DNA from: Haliotis rufescens
Lineage: Eukaryota
Assembly: GCF_023055435.1 (NCBI RefSeq)
Contig: NW_025963857.1
Coordinates: 23,374,001-23,438,000 of the forward strand
Direction of reading: 5' to 3'
Length of the DNA: 64,000 nucleotides
Shown here piece by piece: positions 29,634 to 44,287 of the stretch (within the stretch, counting starts at the first letter, position 1; each line of letters opens with the position of its first letter). A program made the translations under genes and the position numbers. Below the pieces are notes generated by a model. It did not search any database. It was not told where the DNA came from and was given only the letters and a program-made list of their open reading frames with translations.

Positions 29634-29693
29634 GTTGGTTAGTTGGTTGGTTGGTTGTTTAACGCTGCACTCAGCAATATATTACTGCTACAT
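29634..29693 (-). mobile_element. SINE-B, unit 7, 3' tail portion (split by transposon)
   Basis: Matches the SINE-B tail up to the CAT TSD. Confidence 0.83.
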
Positions 29694-29751
29694 CACTGCA
29701 AACACGAAAACGTCGTTTTTTTCCGTATATGGTCATTGGACGGAAAAACGA
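29694..29751 (+). repeat. Left terminal inverted repeat (58 bp)
   Basis: CACTGCAAACACGAAAACGTCGTTTTTTTCCGTATATGGTCATTGGACGGAAAAACGA is the exact reverse complement of 40594-40651. Confidence 0.97.
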
Positions 29752-31451
29752 ATAAAAATTCATTAAAATTGATTAATTGGTCAGCGTCTAGAAAGTGTCC
29801 AGAAAAGGGTCGAGTTTTTCAAGCGTAAAATGGACGGAAAAACGATGCTTTTTGCTCCGCCTTGTACAACTGTTAACGGCCAATCAGATGGCGCTGGTCC
29901 CCCGACGCACGTGATGTCCAAGGCTTCCTTTCGGAAGCTTTAGATTTCGTATTTCTGGCATGCCTTGCTCTAGTATCTGTCGCGCGCAGTGCAGCGAGAT
30001 TTGCTGATAAGCTAGTTTTAGGATATGTTACATGTTAATGGAATTCATACACGCGCCAAGAAGTCAAACCAAACAATGTTACTAAGTTTATTGTGGTAAC
30101 GGCTATGTACAGTTACCCCTATCGGATAATGGGTTGTGTTTCATTTGGTTATAACAATAACTAATAATTTTTATTTTTTAATGTGAAGTTTACAAGATAT
30201 ACGACTTGGACGCGAGGTCGGTCACATGACGTTCTTCACGTGACTGTATTCTTGAAAAGGCGTAAACACTGACTACTTCCACATTCCTGGGGAAAACCCT
30301 TGGAATTCCCTGGTACGAATTCATACAGAAGCGTGGTTGCAAGCCTCGCTACAACCCATCCCAGAGAGAAAAAACACGAAAAAAAATCCAAATTGTCGCA
30401 GTGACAATTTACAGAAATCTATGAATTTACCTTAGTATCTATTTGACACATCTTCACAATCACCTTTCAATGATCGGCCAATTGATCAGTGATGCCAAAG
30501 GCTTGAAATAGCCACAGGTTAATTAACAACTTCGAAAATATCTCCCGTCACGTTTATCGTGTCGGCCATTTTGACGTATTGTACTTGATGTAAATGTATT
30601 ACGACGCTCTGTCATTGTAATTGACTTACTGAGGTAATTCTGTAAAAGATCTTCTCATCTAATGAGGATATTGTTTGGAATATATTTCTTGTAAACATAC
30701 TAAAACATATGTTCCTCGCTTTGGGGGGAACTATTGTATTCCGGGGTGGCCCATTAAATCTAGTAGTAAGTCAAGGCACCATGCGTGATCTGTTATTTTA
30801 TGTGTTTAAATTACGATTTGGGGCGTTAATAAAATACACTGACGCAAGTATATTCTATTCAAATCAATTGGATAATTGAATATGCTTTCTTTTACATATT
30901 ACATAACATCACTGCACAAAATATGAACAGTTGCAGTAACACACTACGGTAATCGCATTAAACATCATTTTCAACTGTACAGTATTTCAGTATTTCAGTT
31001 ATATCATGGTGTATCAGACTGATCCGAAGTGGTTCAGGTCATCCAATGGGTGTTCGGGAAAAGGTGCGCGTATCCTGCCACACAAGTGGCACCCGTCACA
31101 AACACATGCAAGGACAAGTCAATTGTTCACCTGAACAAAGCACGGAAACACACAATGATGCCCGTCCTCAGTTTTACCGAGCATGTAAATTATTTTGTCC
31201 GTCAAAAACATGGACGAGTATAAACAATATGTTCATTCACGTAATACATATCATACATTTGACAAAATGTATTGACTCGGAGCATTATTGTTAATCACAG
31301 CGTATGCAGTTGAACTCATCACCCATCCCATTATTGATAACCCTTCTTGAAGATCTATGAAATCAGAAGCTGCAACACCCTATCTTTTAACTGGCATGTC
31401 AGACTTCTATTTCATTACTCAGTTTTATTTGCACGGATTACTATGGAAGGG

Positions 31452-31670
31452 ACATTGTCTCGTTGTCGCATTGTCGCATTGACGCCTTTACAAAAACAAG
31501 CAAAACGTGTCAAAATTAACAAAAGCGCGACAATTGGCCATTTGTCGCATTGTCGCGTGTTCGCATTGTCGCTCTTTGATAATCCTTTTCTTTATTTTAC
31601 AAAAGGGCGACGATGCCGTAACGCGACATTTTCAAGGTCAAAATATGTCTCGTTGTCGCATTGTCGCCCC
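31452..31670. repeat. Cluster of direct and inverted TTGTCGCA-type repeats (probable transposon or MITE remnant)
   Basis: TGTCTCGTTGTCGCATTGTCGC at 31456-31477 and 31646-31667; an imperfect inverted copy at 31605-31633. Confidence 0.65.
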
Positions 31671-32146
31671 ATCACAAATGTGTATAAAACGCGTAAAGTT
31701 CAGTTATTGTTACAGTTAGGAAGTTCAACCTGATAAATGTACGTCTTGAAAACACAAGTCCGTCCGCGAGTCCATAACGTTTTATTGTGAGCTCTTCTCT
31801 AAAAGTGCTTAGTGTTCAACTCCCAGTTCCACACACGTAGTACCTCCTCAAAAATCCACATACCTCCAGTGCAGTGGTCTTCCGGAAGATCTTACTCTTG
31901 ACCGTATTAGACAACTGACGAGTGCACGCCTGACCTGTGACCTCGTTGCAACCCTCGTGATGTGTTTGCCGAAGGGAGAGGTGTAGGAAATGTGTGCTCC
32001 AGCCCAGCACAGAGCTCGCGACACACTGTATACTGATGTATACAGTATATTGCAGTTGATAAACTGTATACTGCATGTGATACTTATTTGCGGAAATGTT
32101 ACAACTTTCAAGATTCAAGATTCAATTTACATTTATTTCATATACA

Positions 32147-32200
32147 ACAGACCGCCGTCATATATCACTGGAATACTGCTGAGAGCGGCGTTAAAACAAA
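32147..32200 (+). mobile_element. 5'-truncated SINE-B-type tail
   Basis: ACAGACCGCCGTCATATATCACTGGAATACTGCTGAGAGCGGCGTTAAAAC matches the SINE-B 3' end. Confidence 0.75.
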
Positions 32201-33708
32201 TTGTTTTCCTAATGGAGCGCTGCAGTCATTTAAAATAGAACCGTATACATATGTACATGTAGTACCAACTCACTCTATTTGTTTCCAATATTCAGCAGAA
32301 AATATATTATTAACCAGGTCTTTGGGAAAAGATATCAGATTTTTATAAGCAGCCACATAGGGATGATAAAGGACCCCTCGCTGATTAGGTTCTTGTTTAC
32401 TTAAGAGCAGAGTTGGCCATGTTAGATGATATAACCAAAATCCAGGCGCTTCGGCGGGGGGCAAGCTGGTCTTGTTAGTGTATGGTATGAGCTGTGACGT
32501 TGACCCAAGAGAATAATGTAAAACATGAGACCAACTCAAGTCTATAATGATTGGGAAAGTCTAGATTTCCACAGCTCTGACCTGAAATTAAGAATTGTTC
32601 TATGCTCCATTTTAATTGTATTATTTTCATTTTGTAGACATGGATGGACCAACCAGGAAAGAAATTAATGGAATATTAATATCACATGTTACCACTGATC
32701 CAGTTAAATTCATCACACAATAATAAATTAGTATTTGACATTACGGCATTTGATTATTGGGGCATGATCATGTACATGTTCACTGTAGTAATGTACACAC
32801 CAGTCAACTTGATTATAATTTTTATCAAAGTGTAGCGCGGCATCAACGATTACTTTATGATATCCTCACTTGTCATCGATGTATTGACATCGAACAATGG
32901 ACGGCAATTCGAAATTCTTATGGATAGCTTCAATAGGGACAGCGCCGGTGTCAGTACAATTTTCCTAGTTAAAATAAGTATCTACAAAATATAATCTGAA
33001 GCAGACAAGAACAATATTTTTTTATTAATGCTTACTTTCATGGATAGAATTAAGGCAATCTAGGCTTGCCAAATCGTTCTAGACTTGAGCTGGATTCCTT
33101 TTAAATTTATTCTGTATGGTCTGGGAGACGAACGGGCGTCAGTATCGCATGGAGAACTGGGACAGCCTTAATCAGTGTAATCGGATATGTTGTGGAGTTT
33201 CGGTTTGGGGCTGTTTGCTGAATATATAGAATTGCGAGTTATGTATACTCTGTATTCTTCGTCATGGTAGCATATATATTTTGTACAGTTTAAAAGTCAA
33301 ATAATGGCAAATTGTGTATCTTTCTACATTTTGAATTAATTATATTTTCTGAAATAAAACCTTAGCATCAGATAGTGATATACACGAATATGATCTATAC
33401 TATTATAAATGAATTATCAATTTCGTATTATGAATTAGATAAACAAAAATATGATAGTAAAACAAATTATTTTAATCTATTCTTGTGAGGAGGTAACGAG
33501 AGATCTAGGCAACGCACTAACGTAGCCATTTATGAAAAATGAAATATTAAAAGTTTAGGGGTTTGAACATGCACATTGAATGATAGGGAAGAAAGCAACG
33601 CAATAATTAAATTATGAATCAAATTATGTTATAAATATAACAGAATATTTAGAAAATATAAGTTTAATTTCTCATTGTTGGAAGGTGTTTAACAATTATA
33701 TACTTAGA

Positions 33709-33935
33709 TTTGGTTGATTGTTTGTTGTTTAACGCCGCACTCAGCAATATACCAACTATATGACGGTGGTTCGTAAATAATCCAGTCTGGACCAAACAAT
33801 TTAGTCATTATCATCAAGAGCACCGATCTACGCATTTGGGATACGATGACATGCATCAACCAAGTCAGCGAGCCAAGTCGCCTTCGTAGAAGCATAGGTT
33901 GTTGAATGCCTATTCTAAACCGGATCTTCACGGGT
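33709..33935 (-). mobile_element. Diverged SINE-B copy with internal deletion
   Basis: Colinear with 2890-3155, e.g. GTTTAACGCCGCACTCAGCAATAT and CATGCATCAACCAAGTCAGCGAGCC. Confidence 0.85.
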
Positions 33936-36472
33936 ATTTTTTTAAATAATAAGGTACAATGAAATTCTGTATATGTCCATAATAAGTGTGTATAAGTAGA
34001 TGGATAATATGTCCATACACGCCAAGTAAATGGTATATGCATTAATTTAAATGCAAATGATTCAATGATGAGTTCTTTCACAAGTCCATATTTCAAGGCA
34101 TGTATTTGATATTCATAATAACTCCACAAAAGCTACATAATGGCAACAAAACAGTACCAGCATCACAGATACCAATAATACATGAGATACATATAATTAC
34201 TTTAAAGTTAAAACATGTATCCAAATAGAAAATTAGAAGGATACACTTCCGACATTTTTCGTATTTTGTTTTCGTTTGGAGAGAGAAGTTGTGATGTTCA
34301 AACAGGTGTTCCCTTCCGACCAGGCCTTGCGGCAATGCTATAGCCCAAAATGAAACAAGCCTTGTTCAACAGGTTCAGACTCAAATTTCTATCCCACTTG
34401 GGCTCCTTTTAAATTTAAATATAATTTCTCGTGTCGATATGTGTCAGAAGAAATGAAATATTACAGCACTGGTGAATAGGTTATATGCGCATGTCAGCGT
34501 CGATCCTATAATATCCTTTTATGCAAAATACATATATACTGATGAAATAAGGTAGTAATCCTACGCAAATATATGTCCAGATGCATACATCAGTATCATC
34601 TCGTGATCTTAATTCGTCCTGCACTCTTTCTTAAAAGATAAATGTGAAGCATTTCCTCTGTATGGATTTATATAATGTAGTATCGTTTAAATGTAATGCT
34701 GATGCAGTAAACGTACCACAGACCTAATCCTAGAATAACATCTAATTTCTGAAATGAACATATTTTACAGAAAAAAACAGTTGTTTAAACAATACTTATA
34801 ACATATAAGAACAAGGAGCCAAGAGCCAAATATTGGGCTGTGTTGGACATATTTGTTTCGGGGTCTTATGACAGACAAACCTGATGCTTTTAACTATAAA
34901 GATAAGTAAGTATAGATGTTGTACATATTCAAATATGTTCGTGATTAACCCAACCTTGAAAAATATTGAAAGATGAGTGGTAACTATTTATGCCATTATT
35001 TCAAATTAGAATGAGAGCACATCAGGAAAGCATGGTACTTTAATATACGTATCTTGTTAACCCAATATTCTTTTTTAAGTAAGAGCAGCATGTATATCGA
35101 GAGTATAGGTTTGGTGCGTGACTTATCACACAGTACTTTCAGAAAGTGTGCATATTCTGTTTATCGGCAATAAATAACATAAGACGATTCATACGGGTAA
35201 ATACGAACTAGTATAGATTATTTAAGGTTAGGGGGAAATGTATGTAATTAACAGATCTTTGGCCGGGTTTGAAGGATTTGGGTCCTGGCTTGGGCTTTGT
35301 GTTGGACGTGTAGACGGCATTTCCAGGTTTGACGTATCAATGACAAAAATGATGTCAGATGCAATTCTCTGCCTTTTCGGGTGAACAATTGGCTTGCCTT
35401 TGGATGTGTTTGTGGCGGGTGCCACTAGTGGATCGGAATTAGCTCGCGTTTTTGCGAGCATCCAATGTCATCATTTATTATGATGAATCATGAAACATGC
35501 TCCTGATGTTGACGCAATGGTGCAGTTGGCGCTACTTTTGGCAAGGGTTTCTCATGATAATGGAAATGCTTATGTCGCTTTTGTTGACCGATAAACTTGA
35601 AAAGATATAATGTTAGTGTATATGGTCATGTAATTAAGAAACAAACGACGAGTGGGAGTTGTTTATTGTACGATAAACAACGACCGAGACTCGTTTATTT
35701 CTATATGAGATATCAACATTACGTACAGCCTCTTTTAGGGTGTTAAATTAGGAAAAAATACACGCTTTATAATATTTACCATATTTACTATCATAATTAT
35801 CATCATTATTTATGTTACTTATCCTCAAGTGAAGTAGTCCTCCACACTATACATTCAGTGAAGAAGCCCATGAACATATGAACTATGTAACATACATTCA
35901 TGGAAATTAGATGAACAGTTGAAGTTAGCAAATGATATTATTCGGTCGAACGTCTATCAGCCATCTATTCTATTCATGAAGAACATTTCACGTGGGACCA
36001 ACATAGGGAATTATGACTATCGACTTGCTAATTATTTTTTATATTCATGCCAGCTCAAACGATCTATTGGCTTGATTTATTGTTATGGTATCCACAAAAT
36101 AAGTAGGATCCGATTTTTTCCGTTTTTGTTGAAATAAAACTGAATAATATTTGCTGTTTACATATCAAAGTTTGCCAAATTCTTACAAAATGTTTGCCCA
36201 CAGCAAGGCTACGTATCCCTAACATATTGTGCTAGGCACAGTATCACTGGACTGAGGGAGGGCGGTATTCCTCCTTGTGGGTCACCTGCTTGGCAATATG
36301 GGACGGGAAATCTGCAGGGGGTGAGGGCAGTTAAGTTGATGGTACAGACAGATAAGAGAGATCATTTTACAAATGTGAAACCTCAGTCCACAAAGGAAGA
36401 GGCGAAAGCTGAAACTTGGTGAGGTTTACAGAACAAAGGCAGTTATTTCTAGTTTCTTACTGACTCTCGAAG

Positions 36473-36609
36473 NNNNNNNNNNNNNNNNNNNNNNNNNNNN
36501 NNNNNNNNNNNNNNNNNNNNNNNNNNNNNNNNNNNNNNNNNNNNNNNNNNNNNNNNNNNNNNNNNNNNNNNNNNNNNNNNNNNNNNNNNNNNNNNNNNNN
36601 NNNNNNNNN
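36473..36609. other. N run (137 bp), assembly gap or mask
   Basis: Run of n. Confidence 0.99.
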
Positions 36610-36654
36610 TTTGAGTGAAAGAAAACACTATAAGTGAGTATCACTCGTATCACA

Positions 36655-36673
36655 ACGCATGCACGCATGCACG

Positions 36674-36705
<32 letters not shown>
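36655..36705. repeat. Compound (GCAC/GCAT)n-(CA)n microsatellite
   Basis: Read directly from the sequence. Confidence 0.95.
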
Positions 36706-36760
36706 TCACATTCTTCTTTCCCCACCATTATGTCTACGTCAGCCATCATGGATCCATGCG

Positions 36761-36930
36761 CATGCTTTCATACATAATCCATCCTCCCACCATTCCCCAA
36801 CATCCATCGAACTATAACTATATCCGCCCTCATGTATCGGTATTCGTGCTTTCATACATACATACACACCCCTACCATTCCCCTACATCCATCGCAGTAT
36901 AACTATGACTATAACCGCCTTCCTGCATCC
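36761..36930. repeat. Degenerate ~85-bp tandem duplication
   Basis: TGCTTTCATACATA...ACCATTCCCC.ACATCCATCG...TATAACTAT...CCGCC occurs twice. Confidence 0.7.
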
Positions 36931-37445
36931 GCACTTATGTTCACATTGCATTGCATATGCATCGAATTACACGTTTAAAATATCGTAAATATTTTACAAC
37001 ATGTACATATTATATATCAGCAAACAGACATTATTATAACGCAACAGATTTCATCCGTCAAAACATCACAGAAAGAGGGGCAGCCTGGAATTTTACAATG
37101 GCATCTGAATGCACTAAGACGTTCAACTGGTCATCAGGAGGTGAGAGTTGCGGAAGATTACGGTAAACTTCAGTTACAGATCTCCATTACGAATATCTAA
37201 AGTATGAATAAAGACCACAGCTTGCTGTGGCGTGTACGTCATGCCTGCAGAATTAGCAATGTCCTTAGTACTAAATTGTATGTCTAAATGCTTATGTAGA
37301 CAAAGACCCAAATGTATATAGGCATGACCATATTATATTCTACGCAAGTATCACCACATTTAAAAACAAAGCTAGATTGAGTCTTTGAAGGGCATTAAGA
37401 GCTGATACACACAAGGAAAAATATTTATGGATGTCAACGGAGGAA

Positions 37446-37485
37446 CACTGCGTTTCGGAATAAATACTTTCTCCTTCATCAGATG
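37446..37485 (-). ncRNA. Degenerate minimal type I hammerhead ribozyme motif (Penelope-like element or retrozyme remnant)
   Basis: Minus strand CAT-CTGATGA-A-GGAGAAAGTATTTATTCC-GAAA-CGCA-GTG. The core boxes CUGANGA and GAAA, a stem II hairpin and stem I (CAT/GTG) are present. The cleavage triplet is GCA rather than NUH. Confidence 0.6.
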
Positions 37486-37887
37486 AATATTATTAAATGC
37501 TATGAGGCAGAGAACATATATTTGTACCTGTAAGAACAACAAAAGTAAAAAGATAGCAAAGAAGGGAACGCAACAAGGGAAGCCAACAGATAACTGGCAT
37601 GGCGCTGATTACCCCGCCTCCCGTTTGCCCATTGTCCATTTCCCATTACCAATCATTCATAAGTTAAGTTTTGGCTTTAATTTGTCCATTGATAATCAAC
37701 CATCAACGTCTATTATCTCCACCCTAAAAATATGTAGTTTACTGAGAAAGTGGTATCCAAATATAATGTGTGTTACTGTTGACCACTTTCTTAAAGGCAT
37801 TGTTGGTTCAAAGCTTTCGGTCATAGAAGCCGTGCCATTTTTCTCTTGTCAGAGGAGTACACAAAGTATACGTCATCTGGACTAACA

Positions 37888-37996
37888 TTTTTGGTTCGGT
37901 GGCTGGGTTAGATCGCCAACTTTGTGTTCCGGCGATTGGGTGCCTCACTCACGGTGTGGGTTCAAATCCCGGACGGGACTCAAGCCAAGAAAGTAC
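37888..37996 (+). mobile_element. tRNA-like Pol III cassette (SINE head or pseudo-tRNA)
   Basis: B box GGTTCAAATCC at 37959-37969 within the T-arm hairpin GTGGG-TTCAAAT-CCCGG. Weak A box near 37900. No full cloverleaf. Confidence 0.5.
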
Positions 37997-38183
37997 GAGA
38001 ACCTGTACTTTACTCAGAAAGTGTTATCCCAATTATAACATTTGTTGTCAAGAAAACACAATAAATGTATATTCGGCTTTGGATGGGTAATGATATCACA
38101 GAAATATACGGATATTGATGATGACTTGGAGGAGTTTCGTAACGCACGTCTTCTCAATTCAGGGATTGGTAAATCAAAATATA

Positions 38184-38190
38184 TGTGTGC

Positions 38191-38221
<31 letters not shown>

Positions 38222-38222
38222 T
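38184..38222. repeat. (GCGT)n microsatellite
   Basis: Read directly from the sequence. Confidence 0.95.
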
Positions 38223-38894
38223 AAATGTGGGCCTGTTAGATGTTACATAAAACATTCATCTTGAGCGGGATGGTAGTTCGAGTTCGATTAGCATGTTAAC
38301 GATATCATCTTCTTTAGGCAGAGAATGCTGCGCATGAATGTATTGATGAAATTCCTAGGTACATGGGGCCTTTTCGTCCCCAGGAATACCCAAAGTGGAG
38401 ACTTCAATGGGGATAGGGTGTACACAATGTGCTACCTGGTAGATTGTGTGTCATCAGACCGGACAACGTTGGTCTTTGACTGATTGTGGCGTAAAACACA
38501 CTTATTCATTTACTTATATCGGAAATGGAATGTTCATCTTAATTGTTATTGTTGAACATGTAATATATTTTAAAAGAAATAAAACAGTGACATAATAACT
38601 ACAACTTTATGTGAGCGAGAGTAGCTTATTTGGAATGAGATGAATAAGTCTTATAAAGTTGTAAGCTTCTTCACAATCGTGTTACTATGAATTGACTTTA
38701 TTGGGTAATCAAATAAAAGATAGGACCTAAAATAGCCAAATTTCATACGATTTCACTTGTCCACCATCTTGGATGCAAGGCGAAAACATTTCAGCGCGTT
38801 TGAAGCCACTGAAAATGCCCCGTGCAGAGTTGGACGAACATTCTGCGGTGGCGCGGCTGAGTTGACCAGAGGCTAACAGCAGTATTTCCTGTCC

Positions 38895-39040
38895 NNNNNN
38901 NNNNNNNNNNNNNNNNNNNNNNNNNNNNNNNNNNNNNNNNNNNNNNNNNNNNNNNNNNNNNNNNNNNNNNNNNNNNNNNNNNNNNNNNNNNNNNNNNNNN
39001 NNNNNNNNNNNNNNNNNNNNNNNNNNNNNNNNNNNNNNNN
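38895..39040. other. N run (146 bp), assembly gap or mask
   Basis: Run of n, followed by GCGT repeats and poly-G. Confidence 0.99.
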
Positions 39041-40593
39041 GCGTGCGTGGGGGGGGGGGGGGGTGGGGGGGGGTTGAGATTGGGGGGATAGATGATAGGT
39101 CATCTTGAGTGGGAGGGTATTCGCAGATGAATTAGCATATGAACTATGATTCTCTTTAGGCAGAAAATGAGGATCCATGATGTTCGACCCGGTAGAAGTG
39201 TATTATCAAACCTCACAGCATTGGTTTTTTGACTGACTGTAGCGTCAAAACAAACTCATTCATTTACTTGAACTGAATGTTCATCTTAATTGTTATGGAT
39301 AGTCACGGAGCCATGATCCAGAGAACAGGGTGTCATTAGATAGAAATAAACTGAGTAATAATAGGATTACCAGAAAAACGGGGTTTTACACACAAGCCAA
39401 TAAACTTCGCTCATTAACAGCAGAGTAAGTCAGTACAAGATCGTAAACTGCCCCATAATTATGTATGACATGCTTGTCGGGTATTGCTACATATATATGT
39501 GAAAACAAAGTTATTAAAATGAAGAGCAAAACTGATGGAAGTTAACAATAAACGTGTATACGTGTTATATCGTCACTGCAAAAATAATGATTGTTTGTCT
39601 TTAGTATTAACATTCAAATACGTTATATCTGTATTAGCGATATTGTCTTTGTTCCACCGGTGAGTCAGCGTTAGCCGTACTATCTCGTAGTATAATTGAA
39701 TTTCTGAAGACATCACGATACAGTTTTTACGATGCATCACGTCTGCACTAGCGCTTGATAACAGCCTTGTGTTTGGGTGTTCAGTGGTTTAAATCGCTGC
39801 TCTTGATATTGTTGATTAAACTTTGATACTATGAACAATATAATGTTATGTGGGAGGTTGACTTTAGAACGGTAACATACTAATAGTATATAGGATGACA
39901 TAAACAGAACAATGAGAAGTTCGTCCAGATTAGTGTATAGGCAACATTTAATAATTAAGATAATTACATTCAACAACTCCCCTTTTAAGTCCATTTTCCT
40001 GACTTATAAGTAAATGCAAGAACAATCGGCCGGAATACAATGTATAGTTCTTGTCCACTTCCATGTGACTATATAGCATACAATAAGCTATCGGGTTCCG
40101 TTTAGATCGGTTTGGGTGGCAGCCTAGATAGCCATAGAATACTTTCATCTTGGAATTTCCCATATCACTGGGGATCCTCTTCAATTTAAATGGAGTTACT
40201 CGTTACGATTCCGAACCTTCACGTGACTGTGTTTATGAACCATTGTCAAATAGTGGTGACATTAAATCTAGGAAACAATACGCGAAATCGCGCATGCACA
40301 GAACGAAAAATTTGGTCAAGGCATTAAGTAATCCGCATGCGCAGAACGATTGATTTCAGTACTTCCGCTAAGCGCTTCGAGTGCAGCGTCAAACGCGGGC
40401 CTGTAATCTAACACGCGGGACTGACCAATGAAATCTGAGAAGTAGAAATACCGGTAGACGCTGTTGCTTGATTGACAATGTCAATCAAGAAAGGGAGGAG
40501 CTTAACGCTATCGTTCTCTCCCAGTAAATTCCGATGTCAAATAACGACGTTATTTGGACGGAAAAACGATGGTTTGAAAACGTCCAAATAACG

Positions 40594-40651
40594 TCGTTTT
40601 TCCGTCCAATGACCATATACGGAAAAAAACGACGTTTTCGTGTTTGCAGTG
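40594..40651 (-). repeat. Right terminal inverted repeat (58 bp)
   Basis: Exact reverse complement of 29694-29751. Confidence 0.97.
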
Positions 40652-40864
40652 CATGACGGCGGTCTGTAAATAATCGAGTCTGGACCAGACAATCCAGTGA
40701 TTAAAATCATTAGCATCGATCCACCCAATTGGGATCGATGACATGCATCAACCAAGTCAGCGAGCCTGACCACCCGATCCCGTTAGTCGCCTTTTACGAC
40801 AAGCATAGTCACCTTTTACGGCAAGCATGGGTTGCTGAAGACCTATATATTCTACCCCGGAATC
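40652..40864 (-). mobile_element. SINE-B, unit 7, body (split by transposon)
   Basis: Resumes exactly at GACGGCGGTCTG after the second CAT. Confidence 0.83.
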
Positions 40865-43017: not shown

Positions 43018-43634
43018 TCAATAATAGCCGATACCTGAAACAAAAAAATAGTAGAATAAAGTTGGGATGTATGGATAAGTCACAACGAAGTCTTGAAACT
43101 AGCTGCATGATAAACTATACCAAATATTAGAGAAAGCAGAGAATAGTTTTAAAGATGTTTTGTAAATGTCATCAGCTTTGTCGCTGAAAATAGTAATACC
43201 ACATAGGTAAATTATGCAATTTTGCAAACGAGACTGGAGGTATATTTACGGATACGATAAACAAATGATATCATATTTTGTGAAATACCTTTTCCCAATC
43301 CAATTCCGTATCCTCCCATTCCGTAGAGACCACCATAGCCCCCGAGTCCTCCGTACAGACCTCCCATGCCGTATCCGTATTTGCCTCCGTATAGACCTCC
43401 CATGCCTCCGTATATACCTCCCATGCCTCCGTATAGACCTCCCATGCCTCCGTATAGACCTCCATAGCCTCCAAGACCTCCAAGACCTCCAAGGCCTCCG
43501 TACAATCCACCCATTCCGTAGCCAATTCCGCCCAGTCCTCCTTTCAACCCGCCAATTCCACCATACAGACCGGTAGGCTCGGCAAAGGCGGTAACAGCCA
43601 GGCAGGCAACAAGAGCGGCGACTATCTTCATCAT
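43018..43634 (-). CDS. Secreted Gly/Tyr-rich protein, copy 8; join(43634..43289, 43034..43018); 120 aa
   Basis: As copy 7, plus L>I in one repeat (GGIYGGM). Confidence 0.9.
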
Positions 43635-44287
43635 TTTGAGTATCTATTGAGTAACGGGAAAATTATTGTCAAGAAAGGTAAAATAGCATGTTATCGTTAC
43701 TCATCTGGTAAATTCAGTTCACACCACTCATTGTGAATTATGTTATCAGTTTTGCTTTCACCCGCATTCATATATTTCTCAATTTACAAGAACGTCTTAT
43801 GTTACATATTCGGACTTTTATGAATTGGCTCAACATAAAGATTGAAAACAGCCTGATGCGCAGCAGATGAATCAAAAATTAAAAGTATACATATATATCA
43901 CAAGCAAAATTTAAATTAGTACTTGCAGTTTGGTCTTTACTCGTATCTGTGTCTCAACGGCAGGTGAAGATAAGAGATGATGGAACAGTTTCCCCCGTCC
44001 TTTATATATACCATTTGTGAATTATACGTGATTGATTTACCTTGGGCTGACCACTTCCAGGTAAGTAACGCACCTCAGCTTAATGGTGTAAAGTAAGCAT
44101 TCTTTTCGCATCAAAGGGCCCGAGGTTATCACCCTACGGGTACACATGCGAGCTGGTATCCATGAACATCGATTAAGGAAGTACAAGACAACGTATATAA
44201 AGGTGGCAAACAGACACACTCTCTCTGGCATCGTCGAACTGCATTTCAAACAGTCCTCGATACTCAATGTTTAACCTATATTATTTA

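Follow-up and report, generated by a model that had tools for sequence, protein, structure and literature searches.

A high-copy EnSpm/CACTA-type element family of about 12 kb without detectable protein-coding capacity in Haliotis rufescens

We analysed a 64,000-bp stretch of the Haliotis rufescens genome (assembly GCF_023055435.1, contig NW_025963857.1, positions 23,374,001 to 23,438,000; hereafter the window, whose own numbering is used below) that contains a 10,958-bp element at positions 29694-40651. We conclude that a large non-autonomous element of the EnSpm/CACTA type inserted here recently, in the genome of an invertebrate. It belongs to what we call family A, and the interpretation that we favour, with a probability of roughly 0.7, is that family A is a high-copy, ~12-kb cut-and-paste family with CACTG ends, 3-bp target site duplications (TSDs) and no detectable protein, that its interior is likely a decayed giant autonomous EnSpm element, and that it is likely moved by an EnSpm transposase encoded elsewhere in the genome. 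We observed directly the ends, the TSDs, the copy number, the colinear body, the lack of coding remnants and the presence of one deleted form at two sites with separate TSDs. A first-pass annotation, made from the letters of the window alone, had read the element as a recently active non-autonomous EnSpm/CACTA-type element carrying captured host DNA. The former description stands; the Pack-type cargo finds no support, as the interior is the constant body of hundreds of copies.

The window element is a recent insertion with EnSpm/CACTA-type ends

The element, its terminal inverted repeats (TIRs) and its flanks comprise the following features.

29694-40651: family A element (non-autonomous EnSpm/CACTA-type), 10,958 bp; internally deleted relative to the ~12 kb of its family
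29691-29693, + strand: left TSD, CAT
29694-29751, + strand: left TIR, 58 bp, starting CACTG
29738-29844, + strand: 13-bp (sub)terminal motif, two copies at 29738 and 29832; a third copy lies at 40556
40539-40609: subterminal region on the right, in which short motifs recur in direct and inverted orientation
40594-40651, - strand: right TIR, 58 bp, complementary to the left TIR without a mismatch
40652-40654, + strand: right TSD, CAT

The two TIRs of the window copy are complementary at 58/58 positions; in other family A copies the match extends over 59 bases, and the window copy deviates at base 59. The 13-bp motif is present in three direct copies, together with inverted copies, close to both ends, which is fewer than in the autonomous elements B and C described below. 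Subterminal repeats are a feature of EnSpm/CACTA (CMC) elements, and family A combines them with CAC..GTG TIR termini and a 3-bp TSD. CAC..GTG ends and a 3-bp TSD are used to class EnSpm elements in PMC12730594.

Tandem units of 4.46 kb make up the window, and the 10,958-bp insert interrupts one of them. We found that the corresponding site is empty in 11/12 array units. The first-pass annotation had correctly reported the perfect 58-bp TIRs, a 3-bp TSD and the 11 empty sister sites, and had missed that all 11 of these read TAT, not CAT. Given a family TSD of 3 bp, this difference suggests a private T>C change in the target unit before insertion. The insertion target within the unit is a sequence that we take to be a short interspersed nuclear element (SINE), a label given by eye; its high abundance was measured against a 460-kb background. 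Between the occupied unit and its four right-hand sister units we counted 9-13 substitutions in 4.4 kb, compared with 2-6 among those sisters. These few substitutions indicate that the insertion is recent, as the annotation had also proposed, with the caveat that array homogenisation may hide its age and make it look younger. Two stretches of N, 283 bases in all, are unreadable in the window.

Family A copies have one interior in common

In the 1.33-Gb genome, a 22-base TIR pattern matched exactly at 857 places, 428 in forward and 429 in reverse orientation; the reversed control gave 0. Among the first 100 listed ends we found 30 facing pairs, with a median spacing of 12.2 kb and 25/30 within 10-14.1 kb. 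By extrapolation, the genome would hold ~257 copies with two exact ends, or ~3.1 Mb.

When ten young copies were fetched from the top matches, nine proved complete and 10.0-12.7 kb long. All nine are colinear with the window copy, and each is flanked by a separate 3-bp TSD; the sequence fetched for the tenth, an interrupted copy, stops short of its far end. The nine complete copies cover 78-99% of the window element (8/9 cover at least 93%) at 1.3-2.9% substitution, and they compare with each other likewise. An interior probe gave the same picture, with 40/40 scored best matches at a level of at least 97%. Perfect 3-bp TSDs flank 17 of the 20 complete other copies (9/9, 4/6, 3/4 and 1/1 by set). 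Judged by these sequences, the interior is common to the whole family and was not acquired by the window copy. The genome-wide TIR search, pairing of ends and comparison of interiors that the first-pass annotation had proposed as a check thus came out against its captured-DNA reading: the interior is, in substance, the constant family body that it had itself named as the contrary outcome (Repbase identity lay outside this comparison).

Divergence within the family takes several forms. Five copies of an older subfamily, 5-9.6% diverged, retain 57-89% of the body, and an alternative segment of these older copies matches 40/40 scored candidates. Private nested insertions were found in single copies. 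The window copy itself lacks interior sequence at two points.

34611-34620: deletion point, ~240-270 bp of most other copies missing
35780-35803: deletion point, ~500-840 bp of other copies missing

Both deletions are present in a sibling copy on another contig (G000:C583:33671758-33682651), which differs from the window copy by 53 substitutions in ~10.5 kb (0.5%) and has the TSD AGT. The same deletions at a second site with its own TSD indicate that the deleted form moved as a unit.

Oversized pairs and unpaired ends (7 and 20 loci) represented nested insertions, truncations and older or decayed copies, and an autonomous family A element among them was rejected on these grounds. A sister family with a variant TIR was also rejected: the 13 pattern matches comprised 11 point variants of the family A TIR and 2 sequences from its subterminal region. 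Six variant family A ends, with ~29-kb spacing, lie at G000:C24:10.34-10.49 Mb; their arrangement suggests that a family A copy was amplified inside a large tandem duplication.

Family A lacks detectable protein-coding capacity

Family A is without detectable protein-coding capacity. Neither the window copy nor any of 37 other loci gave a transposase match in searches by tblastn and with a hidden Markov model (HMM) profile built from this genome's transposases, 27 of these loci being covered by tblastn; the earlier statement that the window copy has no transposase is therefore upheld. A profile of the second open reading frame (ORF) of such elements (32 proteins) matched no family A copy, the best E value in a complete copy being 12; the positive controls, elements B and C, scored 5e-12 and 3e-38, respectively. 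Pfam matched 0/99 frames of a full-length family A copy at E<=0.001, and among 26 window frames none passed the cut-off, with three weak sub-threshold matches, of which one belongs in part to the flank set. Codon periodicity was detected in 0/66 windows. No host coding fragment was detected in the interior by the Pfam frames and codon periodicity, the search including no BLAST against a host coding sequence (CDS) set.

Elements B and C as candidate partners

Transposase_21 gave 49 matches in the genome. The first-pass annotation had suggested looking for an autonomous partner encoding such a transposase; among the loci fetched, two autonomous elements were recovered, and neither has a TIR matching that of family A. 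Near-identical ORFs, 29 in number and up to 917 amino acids long, form the largest group and lie in element B (G000:C46:2434680-2460524), a 25.8-kb autonomous EnSpm-type element with a divergent transposase, spliced second-ORF exons, imperfect CAC ends and a 3-bp TSD in 3/4 copies checked. Element C (G000:C108:37113-57702) is a 20.6-kb autonomous EnSpm-type element with an 857-aa transposase frame, a 313-aa second ORF, long TIRs, CAC ends and a 3-bp TSD in 2/2 copies. No family A end was present in seven other 40-kb transposase neighbourhoods.

Element B contains a piece of family A that corresponds to one arm of the window copy.

36644-40651: right arm of the window element; element B contains a nested copy, 96% identical, upstream of its transposase

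Element B carries 4.35 kb of the family A right arm, including the TIR, ending ~160 bp upstream of the transposase frame. The arm has this upstream position in each of the 29 young copies; the TIR start is exact in 28/29 loci and has one mismatch in the remaining locus. An older relative of element B, 94% identical, has an empty site where the arm lies, which indicates that family A inserted into the ancestor of B and then lost its left part. Element B was rejected as the parent of family A on the basis of this empty site.

Does the 917-aa transposase of element B nonetheless move family A? Element B is young (29 copies, ~99% or more identical, transposase frames mostly open), has a CACTG end and a 3-bp TSD like family A, and holds the family A arm. 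We consider it an improbable mobiliser even so. The TIRs of A and B diverge after the five common bases CACTG, their subterminal motifs differ, and the arm entered B by insertion. Moreover, all 29 young B transposase ORFs retain B flank beyond the nested family A TIR, indicating that no unit bounded by the A TIR and a B end has jumped and giving no sign that the B transposase uses the A end. Element C, whose TIR agrees with that of family A at 8 of the first 9 bases, is an equally weak candidate and offers a faint lead.

Several observations concern element B itself. One B copy lies inside an older, rearranged family A copy (G000:C235:5.224-5.253 Mb), where it mimics an autonomous family A element. 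In one small-RNA run, ~300 reads fell on the B transposase ORF (L174:5600-8400), mostly antisense, ~28-32 nt long and resembling PIWI-interacting RNAs, and zero reads fell on the nested family A arm. Contigs of two runs, which we only guess to be RNA, span the junction between B flank and nested arm (L174:1-2526), indicating that the junction is present in other samples.

Origin of the interior

We propose that an EnSpm transposase would act in trans on the family A ends, with only those ends being required in cis. Resident copies would gather SINEs, retroelements, deletions and duplications, and these would travel at the next jump, which would account for an old-looking interior on a recent insertion. 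More tentatively, the ancestor may have been a 20-26-kb intron-rich autonomous element whose genes have since been lost. The presence in the same genome of mostly non-coding autonomous EnSpm elements of 20.6 and 25.8 kb, with CAC ends and 3-bp TSDs, makes it likely, by analogy, that the family A body descends from such a giant. The GC content of elements B and C is 37% vs 38% for A, and repeat-matching bases make up 10% of C and 9% of A.

Several findings weigh against this descent. Only 0.8% of the bases of element B match repeats, unlike family A, and outside common SINE pieces and the nested arm the A body is not homologous to B or C. No autonomous element with the family A TIR was found among the copies and transposase loci examined; together with the missing homology, this leaves descent from a giant resting on analogy. 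About 90% of the family A interior is without a match outside the family in the 460-kb background. Finally, we sampled copies from the top matches and from 100 of the 857 ends, those listed first, which favours young copies.

Capture of host sequence offers another origin for the interior. A single capture event in the distant past might have placed ordinary non-coding host DNA between two EnSpm ends, with hundreds of copies arising from it since, which would make family A a very high-copy Pack-TIR. No copy tested bears a trace of a transposase or second ORF, the interior is host-like in GC content and contains nested SINEs, and multicopy Pack-TIRs do occur in animals (PMC8277862). We think such an origin unlikely, while giving it real weight. 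The interior has no host protein domain and no codon periodicity, and the autonomous EnSpm elements of this genome also have long non-coding interiors. No donor appeared among the best 40 matches, which were all family copies where fetched, although a donor could hide behind hundreds of copies. A bolder form of this idea strikes us as improbable: ~12 kb of non-coding DNA taken from the host in one ancient event and amplified by EnSpm ends to several hundred copies (~3 Mb) would go far beyond the multicopy Pack-TIRs described in animals, and the right arm of family A, placed upstream of the transposase of the 26-kb element, would have supplied regulatory sequence that drove the recent burst of that element. 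All 29 young B copies carry the arm, and only 2 decayed B relatives were seen without it.

If instead each copy had captured different host DNA, as in plant Pack-CACTA, one would point to the private insertions and to subfamily-specific segments of 0.5-3 kb that distinguish copies. Those differences that we examined come down to deletions, nested mobile elements or segments common to many copies, and 9/9 complete young copies have one colinear interior; capture copy by copy is contradicted in the sample examined, and we give it almost no credence. That family A is itself autonomous, its transposase being distributed over exons that are small or cannot be recognised, is highly unlikely. Only its size and the fact that CACTA-like elements of animals are spliced (PMC1636069) would speak for it. 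However, tblastn and HMM searches, the second-ORF profile, Pfam and codon periodicity were all negative, copies have lost different interior segments yet have TSDs, a deleted form moved, and no GT..AG intron was among the joints listed in four runs (663 more joints lie outside that set).

Comparison with known elements

A literature search, with repeat libraries such as Repbase and Dfam outside its scope, found no published description of family A. The CMC-NA_1/2 elements and ENS1_Cis-type ends (PMC6004678) and EnSpm elements (PMC12730594) resemble it in having CAC..GTG termini, a short TSD, a non-coding body and no partner found. Family A differs in its ~12-kb length, which is not that of a miniature inverted-repeat transposable element, in its 58-59-bp TIR, and in its 3-bp TSD, compared with 2 bp for CMC-NA and ENS1_Cis (PMC6004678). 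Animal TRC elements such as SmTRC1 (PMC1636069) belong to the CACTA superfamily like A and, unlike A, have CCC ends and 2-bp TSDs. A transposase-bearing, 15.7-kb TRC-type family with CCC ends and 2-bp TSDs also exists in this genome (G000:C112:59.15-59.17 Mb and C583:3.73-3.75 Mb); it is not family A.

Plant Pack-CACTA and other Pack-TYPE elements (PMC8903248) are, like A, non-autonomous with CACTA-type TIRs and a TSD, and A falls within the 0.3-15 kb screened for them. Pack-TYPE status requires a match to host CDS, an element without one being a non-Pack transposable element (PMC8903248). Whereas Pack-TYPE elements have such a match and an interior less repeated than the ends, the interior of A is repeated along with its ends, without the greater variability expected of a Pack interior (9/9 complete young copies are colinear), and has no coding match detected by Pfam and codon periodicity, which fits the non-Pack class (PMC8903248). 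Animal Pack-TIRs are defined by a unique parental locus without TIRs and are mostly single copy (PMC8277862). Family A is like them a TIR element with a long non-transposase interior; unlike them, it has hundreds of copies and no parent shown.

Family A is thus likely an ordinary, if large, non-autonomous element. Its old-looking interior on a fresh insertion marks a long-lived passenger family, not a fresh capture, and the family shows that units of 11-13 kb without a transposase move intact in the abalone genome beside autonomous EnSpm elements of 20-26 kb. Annotation based on homology would overlook the ~3 Mb of gene-like non-coding DNA that the family contributes; insertions that are polymorphic might be used as markers. 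The family would open a new mechanism only with a host donor, or a regulatory function of the arm nested in element B, demonstrated.

Other features of the interior and of the array

The remaining features of the interior are listed below.

31049-31150: interspersed-repeat fragment, SINE-like by eye; a related piece in opposite orientation lies at 35293-35521
31448-31579: fragment of another interspersed repeat
32147-32201, - strand: small piece of the SINE family to which the insertion target belongs
33682-33942, + strand: nested copy of a very abundant SINE, ~85% identical to the array-unit SINE and common to family A
34531-34575, + strand: degenerate hammerhead-like core, by eye, unconfirmed
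37729-38046: two fragments of other interspersed repeats
38256-39296, + strand: diverged internal direct duplication, 38256-38549 vs 39100-39296, 78-79% identical

The first-pass annotation had described this interior as old. The SINE-like fragments, the diverged internal duplications (73-79% identical) and the microsatellites to which it pointed are present, and matches to interspersed repeats, SINE-like and other, account for no more than 1,021 of the 10,675 readable bases when compared with the 460-kb background. The ribozyme remnant that it also named was not borne out: Rfam gave no ribozyme match at E<=1 in the window and none at E<=0.5 in four other copies, and the hammerhead-like stretch at ~34531-34575 folds no better than shuffled sequences (z -0.16).

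The array has an ORF of its own.

43212-43643, - strand: glycine/tyrosine-rich ORF with a signal-peptide-like start, in a 4.46-kb array unit; the family A element lies outside the ORF, in the SINE of one unit

This ORF had no Pfam match and might encode a shell or structural protein. The array extends over G000:C79:23.35-23.51 Mb and comprises at least 33 units, each apparently with such a short ORF and signal-peptide-like start. A second array, on C24, is 97% identical to that of the window. Another unit of the C79 array carries a 7.4-kb insertion with retroelement-like ORFs (L250:3525 to L251:956), which by eye we take to be DIRS-like.

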